From Mustelus asterias (Eukaryota), in NCBI RefSeq assembly GCF_964213995.1, contig NW_027590173.1:682001-746000 (forward strand): a stretch of DNA of 64,000 bases. The letters run 5' to 3'. Each line of letters opens with the position of its first letter. Within the stretch, counting starts at the first letter, position 1. Shown in pieces: positions 9,231-56,344 of the stretch. Made by a program: the position numbers and the translations under genes. The notes beneath the pieces were generated by a model. It worked only from the letters and a program-made list of their open reading frames with translations, did no database searches and was not told the origin of the DNA.

Positions 9231-9851
<621 letters not shown>

Positions 9852-9881
9852 AGCGACCATTCTTTAATCTGATAACCCAAA

Positions 9882-9926
9882 GGCTCTTTTCAGAGCCACT
9901 CACTTTATCTGAAAAAGGGCGAGCTG
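9882..9926 (+). promoter_or_regulatory. Histone 3' stem-loop and downstream element (H2A)
   Basis: GGCTCTTTTCAGAGCC 9882-9897 followed by purine-rich AAAAGGGCGAGCTG. Confidence 0.95.
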
Positions 9927-10543
9927 GTGTCTATCGGTCAGTTTCTGCACTGCTATTCACAGCACAGCTGTTTCCAGCTTTGTTCTATCAATCCGTACGA
10001 TTGACACATACAGTATTTTAATACAAGTTGCTGCTGTTTATCGGGGAAACAATCCCAGTGAACTAAAATGATCCAATTTCCAATATAATTGCTTTAAAAT
10101 GTGATAGTCTGCGAGGACATTCATCTGCAACCCATCGGTTTTCAGAGCCAGTCATTGTATCTGGAAAAGTGTTAATTATTGTCTATGCGAATGTGCAAGC
10201 GTTTCTGCAATGGTTATATCGGTGTGAGTGGGTTACTGTTTGAGATGCTTCCTGACTGTTGAAAATTGCGTCACTCACGCCGCGACTCGAAACATGAGGA
10301 CAAAGTGGATTTGGGGAATTATTCCTCGGAAACTGAAATGATCGCAGGTTTAATAAAACCACTTTAAAATTAAACTGCAGTAGAATTGTTACCGGCATCG
10401 TTTTTAACTCATCAAAGGATTGGAGATATGATTTACCTCAATGCAACGGAGAGTTACTTATAACATTAAGAGGTTTCAGTACTGGAGTCCTGGGAATATT
10501 CTGTCCTGGGAATTGAAACACGGGAATCGTTAACAGGAGATCG

Positions 10544-10584
10544 CAGCTCTTTCATTTGCCGATTTGGTGGCTCTTAAAAGAGCC
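10544..10584 (-). promoter_or_regulatory. Histone 3' stem-loop and HDE (H3)
   Basis: Minus strand GGCTCTTTTAAGAGCC (10569-10584), then GAAAGAGCTG. Confidence 0.95.
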
Positions 10585-10613
10585 GTTGTTGTACTTGGTG
10601 CTGAGGCCGGGGT

Positions 10614-11147
<534 letters not shown>

Positions 11148-12327
11148 TCAAACTGTGACCAGCGAATTAATGTCTGTAACTCAGGTTCTGATTGGTTCAG
11201 TTGTTTTGTTAACGGCGCCTTTCAGAAATTGGGCCGTTTTCGATGCAGGAAATAGCCGTCTGTATAAAAGACTTTATCCCGTCCTTATTAAAATAAACAT
11301 TACTCGAAATATTGAAGATTTGAAGTCTATCTCCCTGCACTTAGCGCTTTAGACCCTTTCCCCGCTCTCTGGGCTGTTCATTCCCAGAATCTCCCGCTGT
11401 TCCACTCGATCCCTGTCCCTTTCCTCTCCAGCCCATTCAGATTTCCCCTCTCCTGTCGTTTGTAACATTCGCTGCCGTTTTCGGGGGCAAGGATCAGAAA
11501 TCAGTCGCTTCTCTGTGTCTCCCTGAAGCCGGTGTGAAAGGGGTTGAGTTTGTTGTTTGTTACAGAGTGACTTCATATTTGTCCCGTTTGACATTTCTGA
11601 ATAGAGCCGTTTGCTTCCCGTGGCGGACAAATGTTCACAAATGAAACCTCTTTGTAAAATAATCTTATAGCAGAATATTAATTGAGAATCTATTTTTAAT
11701 AAGTTAAGAATTTGTCTCAATTCCCTTTCCCGCGCTGAAATTGGCGGCATTTCCCCCCAATTCAAAATATCTGCCGGTTGACAGTTGAAGCCAATGATTG
11801 GTTCAATGTTCACATTCGATGCTCTGCGATTGGTTCAGAGCTGCGAATGTGGAGAGGATGGCCAATCAGAAGCAGGCTGGGGTTGGAGCGGCTCAAACTG
11901 CGGGAATTGCGGGTTTGTGAATGACTGAGCGGAAACTGATCAGTTTCACAAAGCGTCAGTTTCAGTGCAGGAAACAACCGTCTGGGGGCAAATAGCATCA
12001 CAACTGGGACTGGTCCAGTGAACGATTCACCGGCTGCTGCTACTAAACTCCGCTATTCCAGAGAAAGCTTTTATAAACTCTATCCAAACACTGAGTGATT
12101 AAACAGGAGTGATGTGGCGTTTCACTGAGGGCACATGTCAACTGGGGACTGCTCAGACAATCCACTTAAAAATTTCAAAAACAATTCCTATCGCCGCTCC
12201 AAATGAAATGTTAAATTCGGTGATTCCCGCACTGTAACCTAAACAAAACAAACATGCATCTCAAACACTGAACAGCCTGTCCCAGCTGCCGTTCCCAGGT
12301 CACTGCTCTCTCTGTGAAGCGGTGAGT

Positions 12328-12343
12328 GGCTCTGAAAAGAGCC
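12328..12343 (-). promoter_or_regulatory. Histone 3' stem-loop (H4)
   Basis: Minus strand GGCTCTTTTCAGAGCC, followed by AGAGAGAGCAG. Confidence 0.95.
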
Positions 12344-12377
12344 TTTGTTGTGTGTCCGGGAGAAAGGATCGAGTTGT

Positions 12378-12698
<321 letters not shown>

Positions 12699-12766
12699 TC
12701 ACTCAGATCTCTGCACAATATGAGAGAGGAACTCTTTCAGGCTCCTTTTATACAGCCCTTACCGGC

Positions 12767-12951
12767 CTGTGGAGGCCGGGACGTTGAGCGTCTTCAAGAC
12801 AGAAATTGATAAATTCTTGATTTCTCGAGGAATTAAGGGCTGTGGGGAGAGAGCGGGTAAATGGAGTTGAAATCAACCATGATTGAATGGTGGAGTGGAC
12901 TCGATGGGCCGAATGGCCTTACTTCCGCTCCTATGTCTTATGGTCTTATGG
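12767..12951 (+). mobile_element. Young CR1-clade LINE 3' end with (TCTTATGG)n tail, inside the H4 promoter
   Basis: Near-identical to the reverse complement of 33225-33415. Confidence 0.92.
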
Positions 12952-13667
12952 ACTGAGAAAGGCGGAGTGAGAGCGGAGAGGGGAGGAGACAGAGTGAAGA
13001 TTAAACACAGAGCGGGAGGGAGGAGAGAGCCGGACTGACACACACACAGAACGGCCCCTGATCTTTCAGCTCCACCTCCAGTTTCTGCAACCGCCAATTT
13101 CAACCCGTTTAATAACAATGGAAGCGAAACACAGCTCCCCACATAAACCCTTCCAGAGCCACCCTTCACACTCAAGAGTTTCCACAAACCTGGAGCTTTG
13201 AAATATGGAATCAAAACAGAAAATGCTGCAAATAATCAGCAGCTCCGGCAGCTTTTGTGAAGAGGGAGTTAACGAGTCGGTTCGTGACTTTTTGCTTTTG
13301 TGTTTGGCCCCGTTATGATTCCCAGTCAGTAATATTCCGACTTAAACACAGCAAGAATCGAGGAAGAATCTCCCTCAGGAACATCCTCACCCACATCCGC
13401 TTCCAGCTGTTTACAAATACCTTATTGCAGCTGTTTGGGGAAATCTCCTGAGTTAAAATTGAAGTTGGAAAGCGGTATTTAGCCGCCAGTGTTACTGTCT
13501 CACACTGAATCTACCAGACATCTTTATTATGAGAGAAAGTGGCGATTGAACAAATGTGAAATTCAAATGAAATTCAGCCTCTGCTGTGTTTTGCTTTAGT
13601 CTGAATTTGAAATGATCTCTATTGAGAATGAGCCGGGCCGCGGGACAGGAATCATTTTCTTGCGGGA

Positions 13668-13709
13668 TCAGCTCTTTCCTGAGAGATGTGGGTGGCTCTG
13701 AGAAGAGCC
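13668..13709 (-). promoter_or_regulatory. Histone 3' stem-loop and HDE (H1)
   Basis: Minus strand GGCTCTTCTCAGAGCC (13694-13709), then AGGAAAGAGCTGA. Confidence 0.93.
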
Positions 13710-13745
13710 TTTGGGTTCAGAGGTTTACAATTTGCTCGGGTTCTT

Positions 13746-14426
13746 TCACTTCTTTCCTGGCGCTTTCTTCGCTTTTGCTGCTTTCACTTTGGGTTTGGCC
13801 TTGGATTTAGTCACTTTTTTGACAGACTTTCCGCCCGTCACCTTCTTCACAGGAGACTTTTTCTTCAGGGCTGCTTTCTTCACCGCCTTTTTTGGAGTTG
13901 CCGCCTTCTTGCTGCTTGTTTTCTTCGCTGTTGATTTCTTCACTGGAGTTTTCTTTGCTGCGAGTTTCTTTGCTGCGGGTTTCTTTGCTGCGGGTTTCTT
14001 GGCTGCGGGTTTCTTTGTTGTCACCTTCTTGGCCGCTGTTTTCTTTACTAAAGATTTCTTGGCTGTTGGTTTCTTCACCTTCTTTCCCATTTTCCCCGGG
14101 CTTTCCTTCTTAGCGAGTTTGAAGGAGCCGGAGGCGCCCTGTCCCTTTATCTGCACCAGAGAGCCTTTCTCCACCTTCCTCTTGATCGTTAACCTGATCT
14201 GGGAGCCGCGCTTCCCCACATCCACTCCGCTGCCAGCCAAAGCTTTCTTTATCGCGGCCAGGGACATCCCCTTGCGATCGCTGCAACCCGCCACAACATT
14301 GAGGATCTGCTCGCCTAACTTGGGACCGGCTGCCGCAGGTCGGGGAGCCGCCTTCTTCTTCCTGGGAGACTTCACTTGAGCGGGAGCGGCTGGAGGAGCC
14401 GTTTCGGCGGCTGCACTTTCAGTCAT
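13746..14426 (-). CDS. H1: Linker histone H1, 226 aa
   Basis: Globular domain (SLAAIKKAL..GASGSFKL), K/A/P-rich tail with S/TPxK motifs and KKPAA repeats, 3' stem-loop. Confidence 0.96.
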   Translation of the reverse strand: MTESAAAETAPPAAPAQVKSPRKKKAAPRPAAAGPKLGEQILNVVAGCSDRKGMSLAAIKKALAGSGVDVGKRGSQIRLTIKRKVEKGSLVQIKGQGASGSFKLAKKESPGKMGKKVKKPTAKKSLVKKTAAKKVTTKKPAAKKPAAKKPAAKKLAAKKTPVKKSTAKKTSSKKAATPKKAVKKAALKKKSPVKKVTGGKSVKKVTKSKAKPKVKAAKAKKAPGKK

Positions 14427-21995: not shown

Positions 21996-22724
21996 CTCTT
22001 TTTTTCCCCAACCAAATCACAGAATCACAGAAACCCTACAGTGCAGAAGGAGGCCATTCGGCCCATCGAGTCTGCACCGACCACAATCCCACCCAGGCCC
22101 TACCCCCACATATTTACCCACTAATCCCTTTAACCTACGCATCTCAGGAGCAATTTTTAGCCTGGCCAATCAACCTAACCCGCACATCTTTGGACAAAAT
22201 CAGATTAACTTAGGGGCAACCCAAAAGGGGCAGCTCCCTAAAAGGAGGGGAACCACCCGAACCAAGAAACAAAGCGGAAAGGAAACTTAAAACATCAAAT
22301 TAAAATGTGATCAAAAGGGTCAATAATACACCCCCATTCCTGCGGTGCCCAGCAGGCATGGAAGGCATCAACACTGCCCTCGGACACCGCACACTCCCTT
22401 TCCAGGGACTCCCAGCCGCAAATGTAGCCGCAGTAGAGAGGCAGACAGTCAGGTTGGGCGACCCTGTTGATCGCTCGTTGGATAGATCTGTAGATGGCAC
22501 GCTTTGCCAAGCCCAGGAGCAGGTTCACGAGGAGGTGCTCCTCCTTCCCCTCCGCACCAGGTGCCCGTAGATCAAGAGTGTGGGACTGAAGTGTAAACAA
22601 AACTTCAATAAAAGATTTTTGAGGGAACTGAAAAGTTTGTGCAGCCTAGAACATGAAACATAGACATGGTCCACAGACTCCACAGGATTGCAAAAAGGCA
22701 CGCTTGGGAGCCTGTGAACCGTAA
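21996..22724 (-). mobile_element. Tx1/L1-clade LINE 3' fragment interrupted by an HE1 SINE tail (22019-22195)
   Basis: CxxC..ESVDHVY..C zinc-binding region, LLVNLLLGLAKRAIY, C-terminal HILI*; same family as 36537 and 50113. Confidence 0.8.
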
Positions 22725-23424
22725 GGGTGGGAGGGTGAGCTGTGAGGAGGATGCAGAGATCCTCCAGCGTGATTTGGACAGGCTGAGTGTGTGGGCATCT
22801 GCACGGCAGATGTAGTATAATGTGGATAATATATACGGTGACCACTTCATTATCCACTACAGTAGCAAAAATAGGACGGCAGATTATTATTTGAAGGGGT
22901 GTAAATTGAGAGAGGTGGATACTCAGCGAGACCTCGGTGTCCTTGTGCATCAGTCAGTAAAATCATGTTGAAGCTGTATAAGACTTTGGTTAGGCCACAT
23001 TTGGAGTATTGTGTACCATTCTGGTCGCCACACTTCCGCAAGGATGTTGATGCGTTGGAAAGGGTGCAGAAGAGATTTTCCAGGATGTTGCCTAGTTTGG
23101 AGAAAACAGCTCTGAAGAAAGGTTGAACAAACTTGGATTGTTTTTCTTTGGAGCATCGGAGGATGAGGGGGGACCCGAGAGAGGTTTACAAGATTATGAC
23201 AGGCTTGGATAGAGTGGATTGTCAGAGTCTTTTCCCCAGGGTCAAAGGGTCAATTACTCGGGACAAAGGTGAGAGTGAGAGAGGGAAAGTTTAAAAGAGA
23301 TGTAAGGGTCAAGTTTTTCAGATAGAGGGTAGTGAATGCCTGGAACGAGCTGCCGGAAGAGGTGGTGGAAGCAGATTCTATAACAACGTTCAAGAGGCAT
23401 CTGGATAGGTACATGAATAGAGGG

Positions 23425-36240: not shown

Positions 36241-36536
36241 CACTTCAGGTCCGCTCAGACTCCTTTCCCAAAAGAAAAATACCCAAGCTCTCAATTCTAT
36301 CTTCATAGCTACAAATCTTTATCAATAGAATCATTCATGTGAATATCCTTTGCACTGTCTCCAATGCCTTCGCAACCTTCTTCAAGTATGGTGTCCAGAA
36401 CTGGATGCAGTGCTCCAGGTGAGGCCTATCTCGTGTATTTAAAAGCGCAACATGACCTTCTTACTCATGTATTCAATCCTCCAATAAAACATAGGATGCC
36501 ATTTGCTTTATTACTTGCTCTCTCAACATGCCCAAC

Positions 36537-37028
36537 AGGCTGCACTCCCTTTATGTTTTCCTAAAGAACCTTTTGTTGATGTTTTGTCTGCACTTCAGTC
36601 CCACACTCCTGATCTACGGACACCCGGTGTGGAGAGGGGAGGGTCGGGATGGCGACCTCCTCGTGAACCTGCTCCTGGGCCTGGCGAAATGCGCCATTTA
36701 CCGGTCCAGGCTGCGAGCGATCGAGGGGGCCGTCCATCCTGACTGTCTTCCCCTCTACCGCGGCTATGTTCACGGCCAGGTGTCCCTGGAGAGGGAGCAT
36801 GCGGTGTCCACGGGCGAGGTTGACGCTTTCCGCGCCCGCTGGGCACCGCAGGGGTTGGGGTGCATTATCGACCCTAATAATCACATTTTAATTTGATGTT
36901 TTTAAGTTTCCTTTGTACTTTGATTTCTGTTCGGGCTGTTCCCCCTCCTTTTTGGGGAGCTGCCCCTTTTACTTTGTCCTGACTTAATCTGAGTTTGTTT
37001 ACTTGGTTTGGTTTGACCTAAAAAGAGG
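36537..37028 (+). mobile_element. Tx1/L1-clade LINE 3' end with 14-bp TSD
   Basis: ORF ends ..DPNNHILI*; TSD TCAACATGCCCAAC at 36523-36536 and 37029-37042. Confidence 0.85.
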
Positions 37029-38087
37029 TCAACATGCCCAACCAACTTCAATGACCTTTGTACTTAGAAACTGAGATCCCTCTGTTCCTGACTTTCCTTA
37101 AGAGTTTCTCCCTTTATTTCTCCACACTCTCAAAATGAATCAACTCACACTTCTCTGCATTGAACTTCATCTAGTTAGGTGCATTGACCTGAACAGGCGC
37201 CGGAGTGTGGCGACTAGGGGAATTTCACAGTAACTTCATTACAGTGTTAATGTAAGCCTTACTTGTGACCAATAAACTTTACTTTAACTTTACTTTACTT
37301 TTACTTTATCTGCCACTCGTCTGCCCAGAGGACAGCAATGGAAGCATTCACTCAGCGTCTATACATTCTTCTGAACTCCAGGGTCTCTCAGCCTAATTCA
37401 CTCAGCCTCTCATCATAGAACAACTTCCTCATTCTGGGGGGCAATCTAGTGAACCTGGTCTGTACTGCCTCCAACGCAAGTTCTATTCTTTCTCAAATGT
37501 TGAGACAATAGCTGTACACAGTATTGCAGATGTGGTCTCAATAAAATCCTGTACAATTGCAGCAAGACATCTTTCTTCATCTACTCCAATCCCCTTGCAA
37601 TAAAAACAAACATACCATTTGCTTTTCTAATTGCTTTAATGGATAATCCCGATTGTGCTCCGAATTCTCTTCAGCATTTTAAAATCCGTCACACTTCACC
37701 CTCTCTTCAGCTCTGAAGAAGAGTCCTGCAGACTCGAATTATTAACTCTGTTTCTCTCTCGATAGATGTTGCCAGACCTGCTGAAGTTTCTAGCATTTTC
37801 TGTTTTTATTTCAGATTTCGTCCCTCTGCCATCCTCACATCCTTTTAGACACATATTTGTTTGTTTTTAACTCGCTCGTTAGACTTCTGATTCCCCACCA
37901 ACTCTCTTGCCATTTAATCATTGCTGCACTTCTCCTTGTTTAGAAATGACAAGAGAACAGTTCACACTCGATTCAGTGATGAGTGATGAATGAGAAGTTG
38001 TGACAGAAAATGAACATCTCCGCCTTCTCCCTGTAACCCTGCACATTCTTCCTTTTCAGATAACAGTCTAATTCCTTTGGAACGTTT

Positions 38088-49824: not shown

Positions 49825-50110
49825 TGGGCGGCACGGTAGCACAGTGGTTAGCACTGCTGCTTCACAGCTCCAGGGTCCCGGGTTCGATTCCCGGCTCGGG
49901 TCACTGTCTGTGTGCAGTTTGCACATTCTCCTCGTGTCTGCGTGGGTTTCTTCCGGGTGCTCCGGTTTCCTCCCACAGTCAAAAAGATTAGTTTGATTGG
50001 CCAGGTTAAAAATTGCCCCTTATTGTCCTGAAGTGTAGATTAGCGGGTAAATATGTGGGACTGTGGTCGGTGTAGACGTGATGGGCCGAATGGCTTCCTT
50101 CTGCCCTCTA
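49825..50110 (+). mobile_element. HE1-type V-SINE
   Basis: GGGCGGCACGGTAGCACAGTGG head through a near-complete tail. Confidence 0.88.
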
Positions 50111-50112
50111 TA

Positions 50113-50909
50113 ATCCCCCCTCCCTGGGTGAGGTGCCCCTGAGCCGCCTTGCGGAAATGTCCTCTGTGTCTTTTTCTACCGCGCGGAGGCGTTTCCTGTG
50201 CGGGCTGCTGCACACCTTCCACTACCGCCTCCTCGCCTGTCGCCCAGATACACCTTGGCGGGCCTTGTTGGCGGAGGTCCCTCTACGGAGGGATCTCCCA
50301 CAATTACGTCGGGGACCTGGGGTGGAGGGTGATGCATGCGGCAGTTCCGCACAACCCACTGGTTCACGGGCTCCGAAGACTGGCCTTGTGGAGTCCGTGG
50401 ACCATGTCTATGTTTTGTGTCTTAGGCTGCACTTTCTTTATGTTTTCCTAAAGAACCTTTTATTGATGTTTTGTTTGCACTTCAGTCCCACGCTCCTGAT
50501 CTGCGGACACCCGGTGCGGAGAGGGGAGGGTCAGGATGGCGACCTCCTCGTGAACCTGCTACTGGGCCTGGCGAAACGCGCCATTTACTGGTCCAGGCAG
50601 CGGGCGATCGAGGGGGCCGTCCATCCTGACTGTCTTCCCCTCTACCGCGGCTACATTCGCGGCCGGGTGTCCCTGGAGAGGGAGCATGCGGTGTCCACTG
50701 GCGCGGTTGACGCCTTCCGCGTCCGCTGGGCACCGCAGGGGTTGAGGTGCATTATTGACCCTAATAATCACATTTTAATTTGATGTTTTTAAGTTTCCTT
50801 TGTACTTTGATTTCTGTTCGGGCTGTTCCCCCTCTTTTTTGGAGAGCTGCCCCTTTTACTTTGTCCTGACTTAATCTGAGTTTGTTTATTTGGTTTGACC
50901 TAAAAAGAG
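50113..50909 (+). mobile_element. Tx1/L1-clade LINE 3' portion
   Basis: ORF 50133-50783 (DTPWR..ESVDHVYVLC..HILI*); 3' UTR near-identical to 36897-37028. Confidence 0.85.
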
Positions 50910-50973
50910 GGCACAACGGAAGCGTGCTGGGCTTGTAACTGAGAAGTTGCTGCATCAAAACCATCCTTTGCTA
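50910..50973 (+). pseudogene. 5'-truncated initiator tRNA-Met pseudogene
   Basis: CGGAAGCGTGCTGGGC..ATCAAAACCATCCTTTGCTA. Confidence 0.75.
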
Positions 50974-51254: not shown

Positions 51255-54200
51255 CATTTCAGCCCTTGGAAAAAGCCTCCGAGAATCCACCCGATCTATA
51301 CCTCTCAACATATTGTACACCTCTATCAGGTCACCTCTCATCCTTCGTCACTCCAAGGAGAAAAGGCCGAGCTCCCTCAACCTATCCTCATAAGGCATGC
51401 CAACCAATCCAGGTAACATCCTTGTAAATCTTCTCTGCACGCTTTCAATCATTTCCACATCCGCCCTGTAATGAGGCGACCAGAACTGAGCTCAGTACTC
51501 CAAGTGGGGTCTGACGAGGGTCTTGTAAAGCTGCATCATTATCTCCCGACTCCTAAACAATCCCTCGATTGATGAAGGCCAGCACACCATATGCCTTCTT
51601 AACCACCCCCTCTACCTGCGAGGCCCATTTAAGAGTCCTATGGACCCGGACCCCAAGGTCCTTCTGATCCCCTACACTGCTAAGTGTCTTACCCTTGATA
51701 TTATACTCCTTCATCCCATTTGACCTGCCAAAATGGACCATTACACATTTACCTGGGTTGCAATCCATCTGCCACTTCTCTGCCCAGTCTTGCATCCTAT
51801 CTATGTCACGCTGCAGCTCCTGACATCCCTCCAACCTATCCACAACACCACCAACCTTCGTGTCGTCGGCAAACTTACCAACCCATCCCTCCACTTCCTC
51901 ATCCAGGTCATTTATGAAAATGACAAACAGCAAGGGTCCCAGAACAGATCCCTGGGGCACACCCACCACTGGTGACCGACCTCCATTCAGAAAAAGACCC
52001 ATCTACAACCACTCTCTGCCTTCTGCAGGCAAGCCAGTTCTGGATCCACAAGGCAACAGCCCCTTGGATCCCATGCCCTCTCATTTTCTCGAGAAGTCTT
52101 GCATGGGGGACCTTATCAAACGCCTTGCTGAAGTCCATGTAAACCACATCTACCGCTTTTCCTTCGTCAATGTGTTTAGTCACATTTTCGAAGAACTCCA
52201 CCAGGCTCGTAAGGCACGATTTGCCTTTGACAAAGCCGTGCTGACTACTTTTGAGCATACTAAACTTCTCTAAATTTTCATAAATCCTGTTCCTCAGGAT
52301 CTTCTCCATCAAATTACCAACCACTGAGGTTAGACTCACCGGTCGGTAATTTCCTGGGCTATCCCTATTCCCTTTCTTGAATATAGGAACCACATTCACA
52401 ATCCTCCAATCCTCCGGAACTTCTCCCGTCTCCATCGACAACGCAATGATCATCGCCAGAGGCTCTGCAATCTCTTCCCTCGCCTCCCACAGTAACCTGG
52501 GATACATCCCATCCGGTCCCGGCGACTTATCTATCTTGATGAGATTCAAAATTTCCAACACATCCTCTTACTTAATGTCCACATACTCAATCTTTTCAGT
52601 CCGCCTCAATCCTGTAGTACAACCACCCAGGTCTTTTCCCACCGTGAATACCGAGGTAAAATATTCATTCAGCACCTCTGCTATTTCTTCCGCTTCTGTA
52701 CAGACTTTCTCACCTTCACATTTTATAGGTCCTATTCCTTCACATCTCATCCTTTTACTCTTCACATATTCATAGAACACCTTAGGGTTCTCCTTAATCT
52801 TACCTGCCAAGTCCTTCTCGTGATCCCTTCTGGCTCTCCTAATTTTTTTCTTAAGTCCCTTCCTTCAAGCCGTATACTCATCTAGATCCCTATCATCGCC
52901 TAGCTCTCTGAACCTTTTGTATGCTTTCTTTTCTTTTTGACTAGGTTCAGCGCAGCTTTCGTGCACCACAGTTCCCGTGACCAACCAAAACCTCCCTGTC
53001 TCATCGGAACGTTGTCATTCAGAACTCCAGACAAACATTCCTTGAAAATCTGCCACCTTACTTCGGTACTTTTCCTCGAGAATGCCTCCTTCCAATTTAC
53101 GCCTCTAATCTCCTGCCTGATGGCTTCATATTTCCCCTTACTCCAGATAAACACTTTCCTAGCTTGCGTGATCCTATCTCTTTCGAATGCTAGCGTAAAG
53201 GAGATAGAGCTATGATCACTATCCCCAAGATACTCCCCACTGAGAGATCCGACACCTGAAAAGGCTCATTAGCCAATACCAGATCGAGTACAGCCTCTCC
53301 TCGTGTAGGCTTATCCACATGCTGTGTCAAGAAACCCTCCTGAACACACCTAACAACCTCCTCCCCATCCAAACCCCTTACCCTAGGGACATTCCAATCG
53401 ATATTTGGGAAATTAAAGTCTCCCATCACGACAACCCTGTTATTACTACATCTCTCCAGGATCTGTTTCCCTATCTGCTCCTCAACATCCCTGTTACTAT
53501 TGGGCGGCCTGTAGAAAACACCCAGCAAAGTTATCGACCCCTTCCCGCTCCGAACTTCCCCCCACAGAGAATCCGTAGACAATCCCTCCACGGATTCCAT
53601 CTTCTCTACAGCTGTGACACTATCCCTGATCAGCAGTGCCACCCCCCACCTCCCCCCCCGCCCCCGCCCCCGCCACCCCCCCTCTTTTGCCTCCCTCTCT
53701 GTATTTTCTGAAACATCTGAAACCCAGCACCTGAAGTATCCAGGCCTGTCCCTGTCCCCAAGTCTCCATAATGGCCACCACATCACACTTCCAAGCATCG
53801 ATCCACACTCTAAGCTCATGCACTTTATTCTCTACACTCCTGGCATTAAAATAGAAACATCTCAAACCTTTGGTCTGAGCTCTCCCCTTCTCCATCACCC
53901 GTCTATTCTCCCTCTTACATTGTCTACAATCCTTCTCTATTTGCAGGCTAACCTCCTCGCTCTCAGTCACCTCATCTCGATTCGCTCCCCCCAACCTTTC
54001 TAGTTTAAAGTCTCCCCAGTCGCCTCAGCCAACCTTCCTGCCAGGATGTTGGTCCCCCTGGGATTCAAGTGCCACCCGTCTTTTTTGTACAGGTTACAAC
54101 TGCCCCTAAAGAGGTCCCAATGATCCAGGAACCTGAATCCCTGCCCCCTGCTCCAGTCCCTCAGCCACACATTCATCCTCCACCTCACTCCGTTCCTGCT

Positions 54201-55180
54201 CTCACTTTCCCGTGGCACAGGCAACAATCCTGAGTTTACTACCTTTGCGTTCCTCCTTCCCAACTGTCTACCTAACTCCCGATATTCTCTTTTCATGACC
54301 CCTTCCCTCTTCCTACCTATGTCAGCGGTACCAATATGTACCACGACCTCTGGCTCCTCTCCCTCCCACCTCAGGACATCTGGGACGCGATCAGAGACAT
54401 CCCGGATCCTGACACCAGGGAGGCAGACCACCACCCGAGACTCCCGTCTGTCTCCGCAAAAACGCCTGTCCGACCCCCTTACTAATGAGTCCCCAATTAA
54501 TACTGCCTTCCTCCACCTTTCCTTAGCCCTCTGAGTTACAGGGCCAGACTCTGCTCCAGACTCCACTGCTGCTTCCCCCAGGTGGGCTGTTCCCCCCAGC
54601 AGTACTCAGACAGGAGTACTTATTGTGAAGGGGCACATACACCGGGGTGCTCTCTATCACCCGAGCTTTCCCCTTCCTGGACGTTACCCACTTGTCGGCC
54701 TTTTGGCTAAGATCAAGTGTAGTATGGTCGGCAGCCCATGGTCGGCCGCACTTGGTCGAGGTCATTAGGTTACACTGAAGCTTCATATGTTTCATATGAA
54801 GCAATTTTTTAAAGCGGCATCTCGGCCTTTTGGCTAAGATGCAAATGAGCTCAGGTCTCAGGTCTCCAATCAGCTTGGCTCATGTAGATCAGGCCCAGGA
54901 CAGGGTGGTTTGGTCGCTCGCCCTGTCTTGTCAGCCTGGATCTGAAATGTCTCAACTTGTTGAGACTCTGAATTGGATTTGATTTGATTGAATTGGAAAA
55001 GTATAAAAAAAAAACTTGTCTGCCTCCCGTGGCCCCGGTGTGACCACCTGCTGACAGCTCCTGTCTATCACCTCCTCATTTTCCCTAACCAAACGAAGAT
55101 CATCGAGTTGCAGCTCCAGTTCTCTAACATGGTCTCTTCGGAACCGCAGCTCGACACACCCATCACAGATATGGACGTCC
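51255..55180 (-). mobile_element. Near full-length CR1-clade LINE (ORF1 Zn-finger/SGNH esterase; ORF2 APE and RT), frameshifted
   Basis: ORF 54000-54566 IGDS..HIGT..DGWHL; 53190-53819 GDFNFP; 51908-52561 and 51553-52002 RT motifs. Confidence 0.93.
54697..55013 (+). mobile_element. U2 snRNA-derived short retroposon (candidate SINE) inserted in CR1 ORF1
   Basis: U2 nt 9-39 at 54695-54725, U2 nt 4-27 at 54817-54840, A10 tail, TSD ACTTGTC at 54690-54696 and 55014-55020. Confidence 0.8.
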
Positions 55181-55338
55181 AAGTTTGCAAAATGCTAAAA
55201 TATGATCTGCGCGTGGAAGCCGGAAGTATCCCTAAAAAATCATTGTATCATAATTTGAAATTTATAACTTCGGAAACAATTGCAAACAATCAATTTACCC
55301 AGAGACAAAATCCAAAGACCGAATACAGTAAAGCGCCG

Positions 55339-55410
55339 TGAGTCTGACGTGATTTGAACGCGCAACCATCGGATCTGGAGTTAGAAGCGCTATCGTTGTA
55401 CCACAAACTC
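55339..55410 (-). pseudogene. tRNA-Trp(CCA), probable pseudogene
   Basis: CTCCAGA loop, GTTCAAATC; acceptor stem paired but two anticodon-stem mismatches and a D-loop change. Confidence 0.8.
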
Positions 55411-55637
55411 ACGCTAACAGCATCTTTCGACATCTGGCTTATTTTCTGTGAATTGAAAATCAGACAGGGACCAGAGAGGATAACTGTCTCTCTCTTTACT
55501 TTCTGTTGATTTGAATCGAATGGAAGAGTAACAGCGAACCGAAATTAACGAGAGAGCAGAAACACAACATTATCCTGCGGGAGAAATGCGTTTCTTTCTA
55601 AGAACACAAGAGCTGGTTGGGGGCATAGTGACTGCAT

Positions 55638-55719
55638 GACGAGGTGGCCCAGTGGTTAAGGCGATGGACTGCTAATCCATTGTGCTCTGCACGCGTGGGT
55701 TCGAATCCCATCCCCGTCG
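55638..55719 (+). tRNA. tRNA-Ser(GCT), near-intact
   Basis: Matches vertebrate Ser-GCT except one D-arm change and one acceptor-stem mismatch. Confidence 0.85.
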
Positions 55720-56344
55720 GAAATATATTGACATTGATCCACTTATTGAGGGTCAACTTATGTTGAAGTTCACGAACCAAGGTGAAGTTGAGGTTCAGAG
55801 TTCCACAGGTTTGAGGGTGAATAATCCAGCACCATTCCATATCCCTCATCCAAATGAAAAACCAAAAGAGAACTCGAGCTTGAAATCAGGACACCAGCTT
55901 TGGACAGGAGTTTGCCACCATGAAAACATGTGGTTTCAGAAGCTCCAAACACCAGCTTCATTTGCGGCACCAGTGACAGATTTTGTTTTTAGAGAATCGG
56001 CCGTTCCGCCATGAAAATTAGTGCCGGGTTAGGTGCAATGGTCATGGTAAGTTGCCCCTTAGTGGTCAGGAGCGTTAGCTCGTGAAATACGTGATTGTTC
56101 ACGATTGTTGTTGGCGCAGATTCTTCTGTCCTGCAGGGATTCTACAACGTTCGGGGCGGCAGTTTCACTCCTCTGAGAATATTCACAACTGTTCTCTGAT
56201 AACATTAAAACTTCTACCCAGTCAATGCCTGTTTGAGAAATGGCCATGAATAGGGCTGACATTGAAACGGTTCATATTGAATTAGTTACAGCAAATTGAT
56301 TCTTGAAGAGGTGTTAATATAATGCTTTCAGAGAGACTGTCATA

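Follow-up and report, generated by a model that had tools for sequence, protein, structure and literature searches.

According to the excerpted text of Kojima (2015; PMC4494074), the small nuclear RNA-headed SINEs termed SINEU were found only in crocodilians and were tied to the LINE Tx1-Mar via common Mariner-N4 targets, and no LINE with the ends of SINEU could be named. Their transcription is left there as an open question, with flanking promoters being suggested and the co-transcription of R2 being cited. Keno, a LINE of the Tx1 clade, is specific for U2 genes (Kojima and Fujiwara 2004, as cited in the available parts of PMC6136364 and PMC4640811). Neither a shark SINE with an snRNA head nor a Keno-dependent SINE was found to be reported in the literature searched, most subscription papers and Repbase Reports being outside its scope, and none is named in the excerpts of PMC7245038, PMC5499810 and PMC13034634. 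Here, we describe from the shark Mustelus asterias a U2-headed retroposon family of more than 6,000 copies, which we consider likely to be inserted by a Keno-type Tx1 LINE and to be transcribed from copies residing in U2 genes.

The window, i.e. the whole stretch of 64,000 nucleotides that was analysed, contains on its minus strand a CR1-type LINE (51908-55180) with fragments of the GDSL-esterase part of ORF1, of the endonuclease and of the reverse transcriptase (RT). Upstream of these domains ORF1 is interrupted by an insert of about 320 bases, which is bracketed by the 7-mer ACTTGTC at 54690-54696 and again at 55014-55020 (the left and right target site duplications, TSDs) and whose flanks read ...GPREADK / WVTSRKG... 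in minus-strand translation. With the left flank of the insert 15 loci were retrieved, of which 11 are other CR1 copies carrying a single ACTTGTC, i.e. the empty site, while the insert is present in the remaining four, namely in the window and in three segmental duplicates. The repeats, the flank translation and the 11 empty sites therefore agree with the earlier sequence-only reading that an element had been inserted between ACTTGTC repeats within the codons of a CR1 ORF1. The duplicated segment spans 53031-56196 of the window and has one further copy on C3876 (99.7%) and two on C85 (about 97%).

All parts of the insert lie on the plus strand. Its first head (54695-54725) matches nt 9-39 of the genome's own U2 genes perfectly, as had been claimed, and ends at the Keno insertion site of U2; the first two bases of the match are common to the SINE head and the last bases of the left, 7-bp TSD, an overlap by microhomology. 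The window copy is thus truncated at U2 nt 9-11, and full copies begin at nt 1. There follow a segment diagnostic of the youngest subtype (GGTCGGCAGCCC type; 54726-54775), which forms a strand predicted to pair back on the first head, and a hairpin with a conserved A2T5-6A3-4 stretch behind it (54780-54816). The second head (54817-54840), which the sequence-only reading had placed about 120 bp further on, corresponds to U2 nt 4-27 with 23 of 24 bases identical, lies 127 bp after the first piece and is predicted to fold as a hairpin of its own. The body (54841-54969) comprises three predicted hairpins and has suffered a net internal loss of 16 bp, 20 bases being replaced by 54859-54862; this loss is absent from two of the segmental duplicates of the insert. 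A conserved 3' end with the A tail (54966-55014) terminates in the ten A residues that had been noted (55005-55014), ahead of the right TSD. Elsewhere, the window harbours a histone cluster (9462-14426) with H2A (+), H3 (-), H1 (-) and three histone stem-loops, as well as several tRNA genes or tRNA-like sequences. The H1 protein clusters at 90% with two H1 proteins of Mustelus asterias, which places the host among the sharks.

With respect to copy number, the first search of the genome itself gave 2,291 candidates, with 40 scored and 43 matches. The exact 36-nt SINE tail occurs 2,340 times in the genome and the second head, which is specific to the SINE, 6,297 times when up to one mismatch is allowed; an exact 24-nt U2 head occurs 3,696 times, true U2 genes and LINE heads included, and the controls for all three gave 0. 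By this genome-wide check a single-copy outcome is excluded. A position-ordered sample of tails was drawn from the first 61 of 100 places listed on contig C1, of which one near a locus edge was dropped (n = 60). All 60 tails have the SINE body upstream and none a longer LINE; about 18 copies begin at U2 nt 1-2, 38 begin at nt 12 or earlier, in 11 the 5' truncation reaches nt 64 or beyond, and a TSD score of at least 7 was obtained for 32. Among 135 SINE copies eight head subtypes can be distinguished, the majorities of which differ by up to 11.6%; the subtype of the window copy is the youngest, with a median distance of 1.5% from its majority as compared to 2.2-4.8% in the other subtypes. SINE contigs are also abundant in the runs of the organisms coded B, E and G (617, 1,827 and 135, respectively), so that the family spans more than one species, whereas run X7, with only 3 SINE contigs, was excluded as a host and further runs with small shares were left out of account. 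Thousands of copies with common ends, A tails and TSDs of their own therefore uphold the proposal that a shark harbours a non-autonomous family of U2-headed retroposons, and it is practically certain that the insert is a copy of a genuine, young, multi-thousand-copy U2-headed SINE of sharks. Of the individual copies, one at L108:1490-2036 (minus strand) contains the first monomer three times over, for which an unequal exchange involving its two U2 heads is the likely cause.

The fold predicted for a full copy is much more stable than those of its shuffles (z = -6.9). In the predicted fold the segment following the head pairs back on the head, and four or five more hairpins come after; across 36 copies the predicted pairs are kept in 98.7% of cells, and length variation sits at the hairpin tips. 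As only one pair of 71 covaries, this fold is a prediction and not proven. In Rfam, at E values up to 10, nothing except U2 was found in the window copy and three old copies, the SINE body having no match to U1, U4, tRNA, 5S or 7SL, and the Sm-site column of U2 was put on the conserved A2T5 stretch. To see whether the body retains the middle of U2, in the manner of an internally deleted U2 as in SINEU-3, it was aligned with U2 nt 40-191, and p was below 0.05 in one of 32 alignments; no significant match was obtained between the body and antisense U2 or between monomer 1 and monomer 2. Since these comparisons of the body gave no clear match, the dimeric nature of the element refers to the two U2 heads alone. 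The A2T5-6A3-4 stretch might possibly represent the relic tail of the first monomer or an Sm-site-like stretch.

In turn, U2 genes are found in arrays on C24, and the 8,035-bp unit of one array contains a LINE. Pfam assigns to its frames (locus L051) a zinc-knuckle ORF1, an APE-type endonuclease and an RT, and its A tail joins U2 at nt 38/39, the same junction as the published 3' target of Keno in the available parts of PMC6136364 and PMC4640811. Its assignment to the Keno type is based on the Tx1-type ORF1, the APE endonuclease and the RT together with the insertion 37-38 nt into U2. The 128 scored copies of this LINE are 94-100% identical and, judged by sequence, the family is young; an intact copy in L142 has an intact ORF1 and an ORF2 frame of 1144 aa, and full-length copies have U2 heads of their own.

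A genome-wide search for junctions of five A with U2 nt 39-54 found 30, half of which (15) are accounted for by one amplified Keno unit. The other 15 comprise 7 Keno copies, 6 SINE copies, 1 degenerate SINE-like tail and 1 other sequence, and in one U2 gene a SINE, a Keno and again a SINE follow each other serially, each ending at the same base. A link with Keno had been guessed from U2 nt 37-38, and indeed the Keno-type LINE and the SINE both insert at U2 nt 38/39. The 3' end of the SINE aligned to that of Keno gave no significant likeness (p = 0.25 against shuffles). A cut-down Keno arisen by internal deletion was also considered as the origin of the SINE, and was rejected for want of a significant match to either Keno UTR.

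The genomic distribution of the SINE bears on the enzyme as well. In 35 dispersed copies with clear TSDs (median about 16 bp) a pyrimidine is found at position -1 of the nick in 33, and 13 have an AG(C/T)|A nick, as in the U2 site, against a background of 3.8% (p = 2.5e-10). Similarly, TGT is found within 7 bases after the tail in 29% of 77 SINE copies and in 26% of 23 Keno copies, as compared to 9.5% in the background. Three antisense nested insertions, for which the upstream flank was read at L099, are located at a spot of older copies which resembles the Keno site on its reverse strand. Directly behind 11 of the 60 sampled SINE tails there is another SINE copy, a frequency of tail-to-head tandems that is a sampled estimate, and among 28 Keno 3' ends not selected by flank, 9 are immediately followed by a SINE or the U2 site. 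In the corresponding control, the Tx1-like LINE family of the window, 2 of 30 3' ends had a SINE nearby (one by BLAST, one by eye), and the excess at Keno ends has a Fisher p of 0.02, or of 0.08 with duplicates collapsed. The youngest subtype is the upstream member in all 6 tandem pairs containing it, and in 10 of 13 pairs the upstream copy is nearer to the youngest subtype, the reverse being the case in 3; the tandems thus fit reuse of one nick site before the resident copy rather than insertion into its tail. It is the Keno-type Tx1 LINE that very probably moves the SINE. At L053:3683-5065 an older Keno-like fragment stops 13 nt upstream of position +1 of a lone U2 gene copy, i.e. in front of the head, as is the position of nested SINEs.

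Two U2 arrays were compared. Array A is located on C24, where the 8,035-bp U2 unit (L051, L111-L125; 44.81-44.94 Mb) has been amplified about 15 times, with one intact U2 gene per unit and a broken Keno-type LINE whose own ORF2 is interrupted by a 350-bp repeat. Array B (L143, L193-L195; C21:28.05-28.08 Mb) is compact, with a unit of 448 bp, is riddled with Keno copies, and its U2 is a variant about 90% identical to that of array A. Having just eight starts in this assembly, array B may be collapsed there. In each of the two arrays a whole SINE is found directly behind U2 upstream DNA, namely at L153 in array A and at L220 in array B, in the order U2 upstream DNA, nt 1-39, SINE body, A tail and U2 from nt 38/39.

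Matches to the start of array B number 19, of which 8 belong to the array itself (four with intact U2, one in which a U2 piece precedes Keno, two Keno-headed and one with a SINE) and 11 are dispersed. Of the latter, 9 continue into a SINE (at 7 loci) and 2 into Keno, and none continues into an intact U2. At six of these seven SINE loci a TSD of 9-18 bp is situated outside the array DNA, which must therefore have travelled along on the 5' side of the SINE; at L215 and L217 U2 sequence was carried along on the 3' side within the TSDs. Matches to the array-A start, 59 in number, lie in arrays in 57 cases and at dispersed SINEs in two, one being a chance TSD match and the other L318, where 7 nt of array-A flank are present and the tail shows a variant otherwise seen only in L153 (2 of 178 tails). 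Array B is thus far richer in dispersed transductions than the larger array A, and this excess suggests leaky 3' end formation.

For the 18 copies starting at nt 1-2 no upstream flank in common with the arrays, or evidently with each other, was found, as would be expected if the RNA starts at U2 +1; a jump of the RT onto U2 snRNA could be an alternative origin of such starts. Copies behind U2 upstream DNA differ by 1.8-9% from their subtype majority and are no closer to it than other copies, for which reason none was identified as the master. No copy of the youngest subtype, which is the window's own and the largest, was found behind either U2 array flank.

Of the other rearrangements at the U2 site, tandem repeats of U2 nt 19-37 stand in place of the Keno site in four units of array A (L187-L190 on C24), and four further matches end at the same query position. 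These may be scars of repair, or else alleles that escape targeting and have been spread through homogenisation of the array. In addition, L217:1450-1560 (minus strand) contains a short, 5'-truncated element whose diverged tail resembles that of the SINE and is joined to nt 38-94 of the array-B U2, all within a 13-bp TSD, perhaps from an older sister family using the same U2 site.

As the main route of expression, transcription of the SINE from copies inside the U2 arrays appears fairly likely from the arrangements described. The ORF2 protein of Keno would nick the U2 site and prime on the A tail of the SINE, and the 5' join would be resolved on the matching U2 nt 1-39. Since the SINE head equals the part of U2 that precedes the Keno cut, the whole element would be rebuilt behind the U2 promoter by insertion into U2, and the interrupted gene would then read promoter, head and body, with polymerase II starting at U2 +1 to give the SINE RNA. 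Most daughter copies would land at degenerate AG(C/T)|A sites throughout the genome and would probably be silent, while the few landing in U2 would renew the source. With somewhat less assurance, we favour the view that the SINE head represents the upstream half of its partner's target and that homing via the Keno enzyme makes the U2 arrays renewable source genes. That the SINE RNA might also enter the snRNP pathway, via the U2 5' end and the conserved Sm-like stretch, is rather improbable.

The closest competitor likewise has Keno moving the SINE, but assumes that most copies stem from dispersed masters transcribed by read-through from unrelated promoters ahead of them, that the head is renewed by a jump of the RT onto U2 snRNA, and that the presence of copies in U2 genes is for the most part a by-product of Keno's choice of target. 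Template switching onto U1 or U2 is the route proposed for the crocodilian SINEU in the excerpts of PMC4494074; several copies (L207, L242, L253, L258) do have extra U2 5' pieces ahead of them, and the youngest subtype was not found linked to U2. However, the seven dispersed loci at which array-B upstream DNA is joined to the SINE, six of them inside their own TSD, imply that, in several subtypes, array copies acted as templates on several occasions at least. Moreover, read-through should leave common 5' extensions, and a common upstream flank is seen in 0 of the 18 copies starting at nt 1-2, so that we regard dispersed masters as an unlikely main source, if one still to be reckoned with. A different partner, i.e. 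another Tx1 or L1-type LINE such as the Tx1-like LINE of the window, with the insertions at the U2 site merely reusing Keno nicks, is clearly less probable still. This family, represented in the window by 3' fragments at 36495-37030, 50082-50912 and 22190-22953, is young as well (3,666 first-look candidates; scored copies 96-100% identical), and it had earlier been proposed as the mobilising partner. The tails are loosely alike by eye, the SINE is found near 2 of 30 of its 3' ends, as given above, and the SINE tail has no significant homology to Keno. Against this, the 3' end of the window family is a fixed motif without poly(A), 0 of its 30 loci are at the U2 site, and the supposed likeness of its 3' ends to the SINE tail is no better than that of shuffles (p = 0.26-0.29), by which the earlier proposal loses its ground. 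The nick motif of L1 is TT|AAAA, whereas that of the SINE genome-wide equals the U2 site, and the SINE makes up 6 of the 15 independent U2-site junctions. Because its tail matches the 3' end of neither LINE beyond shuffles, the call of Keno as the partner is made on common targets.

Two more conventional explanations can be set against the size of the family and its internal design. A classical SINE with an internal polymerase III promoter which merely carries U2 sequence would be in keeping with the size, copy number and subtype structure, all of which are SINE-like, and a loose B-box pattern occurs in 9 of 36 copies. An A box is, however, absent from all 36 (both patterns being consensus motifs), each copy has 3-4 runs of at least four T, the first one inside the head, and tRNA, 5S or 7SL gave no match in Rfam; a polymerase III SINE with a tRNA, 5S or 7SL head and A and B boxes was accordingly rejected, and we hold this origin to be highly improbable. 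Still less credence can be given to a one-off chimeric U2 retropseudogene or to a sum of independent ones. Chimeras of this kind are known in mammals (PMC4494074, in excerpt), but here thousands of copies have one internal design and nested subtypes, and all 60 sampled tails belong to the SINE and none to a longer LINE, so that the one-off retropseudogene is refuted by the copy counts together with these tails.

If transcription from sources within U2 genes is the true route, it would account for the transcription of snRNA-headed SINEs in the absence of an internal promoter, and it may be how such SINEs arise independently in sharks and crocodilians. In the shark, a young family, an intact candidate partner and the fossils of source copies in U2 arrays are present in the same genome, and since loci can be named, variants are private to them and the target site is defined, the question of SINEU transcription becomes directly testable. 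In addition, U2 gene arrays are seen here to be attacked at a single position by both a LINE and a SINE, and thousands of recent insertions are potential phylogenetic markers for sharks.

Compared by description and not by sequence, the shark SINE works like SINEU as described in the excerpts of PMC4494074 and has the general SINEU features that were tested. Its head consists of U2 nt 1-39 plus an inner copy of nt 4-27, both as compared with the genome's own U2; its copies are short, non-coding, A-tailed and dispersed, with TSDs and 5' truncations; internal oligo-T occurs without an internal polymerase III promoter in the 36 copies; it forms a family from master copies, as seen from eight subtypes in 135 copies and 60 of 60 tails with the SINE body; and a putative Tx1-clade partner is indicated by the U2 site and nick motif in common with the Keno-type LINE. 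SINEU-1, -2 and -3 are alike in their U2-derived 5' head, repeated U2 pieces, length below 500 bp, A tail and TSDs, in T runs ruling out polymerase III, in tandem insertion, and in a Tx1-clade partner deduced from common targets with no clear LINE-derived tail. The host, though, is a crocodilian there and a shark here, and while Tx1-Mar as the partner of SINEU targets Mariner-N4, the shark partner is of the Keno type and still targets U2. Unlike what the same excerpts describe for SINEU, shark copies occur within U2 genes, following the U2 upstream region, and have taken array DNA along, and a U1 part was not found in the shark SINE by Rfam (window copy and three old copies).

Utopia, as far as the available text of PMC4640811 goes, uses the same U2 site with a 3' flank from nt 39, inserts in tandem in U2 genes and has TSDs of about 20 bp in reptiles, but it is autonomous and has a restriction-like endonuclease, whereas the shark partner LINE is of the APE type. 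The latter LINE (L051, L142 and others) agrees with Keno, as portrayed in the excerpts, in its APE-type endonuclease, its RT and the 3' junction in U2, a junction which the SINE uses too; unlike Keno as portrayed there, the shark Keno-type LINE and the SINE are mostly dispersed and have a relaxed specificity. Also unlike Keno, the SINE is devoid of coding capacity, and no significant Keno match was obtained for its body. R2 has short non-autonomous derivatives in 28S rDNA. From R2 the shark system differs in its target, which is U2 under polymerase II, and in that the SINE is not an internal deletion of its LINE, and from the R2 derivatives in that the SINE has spread to thousands of off-target sites. 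It resembles R2 in that the 5' joining takes place on target-derived sequence and, in line with the expression of R2 in 28S rDNA as cited in the excerpts of PMC4494074, in expression by co-transcription with a multicopy target gene, as proposed here for the copies in U2.
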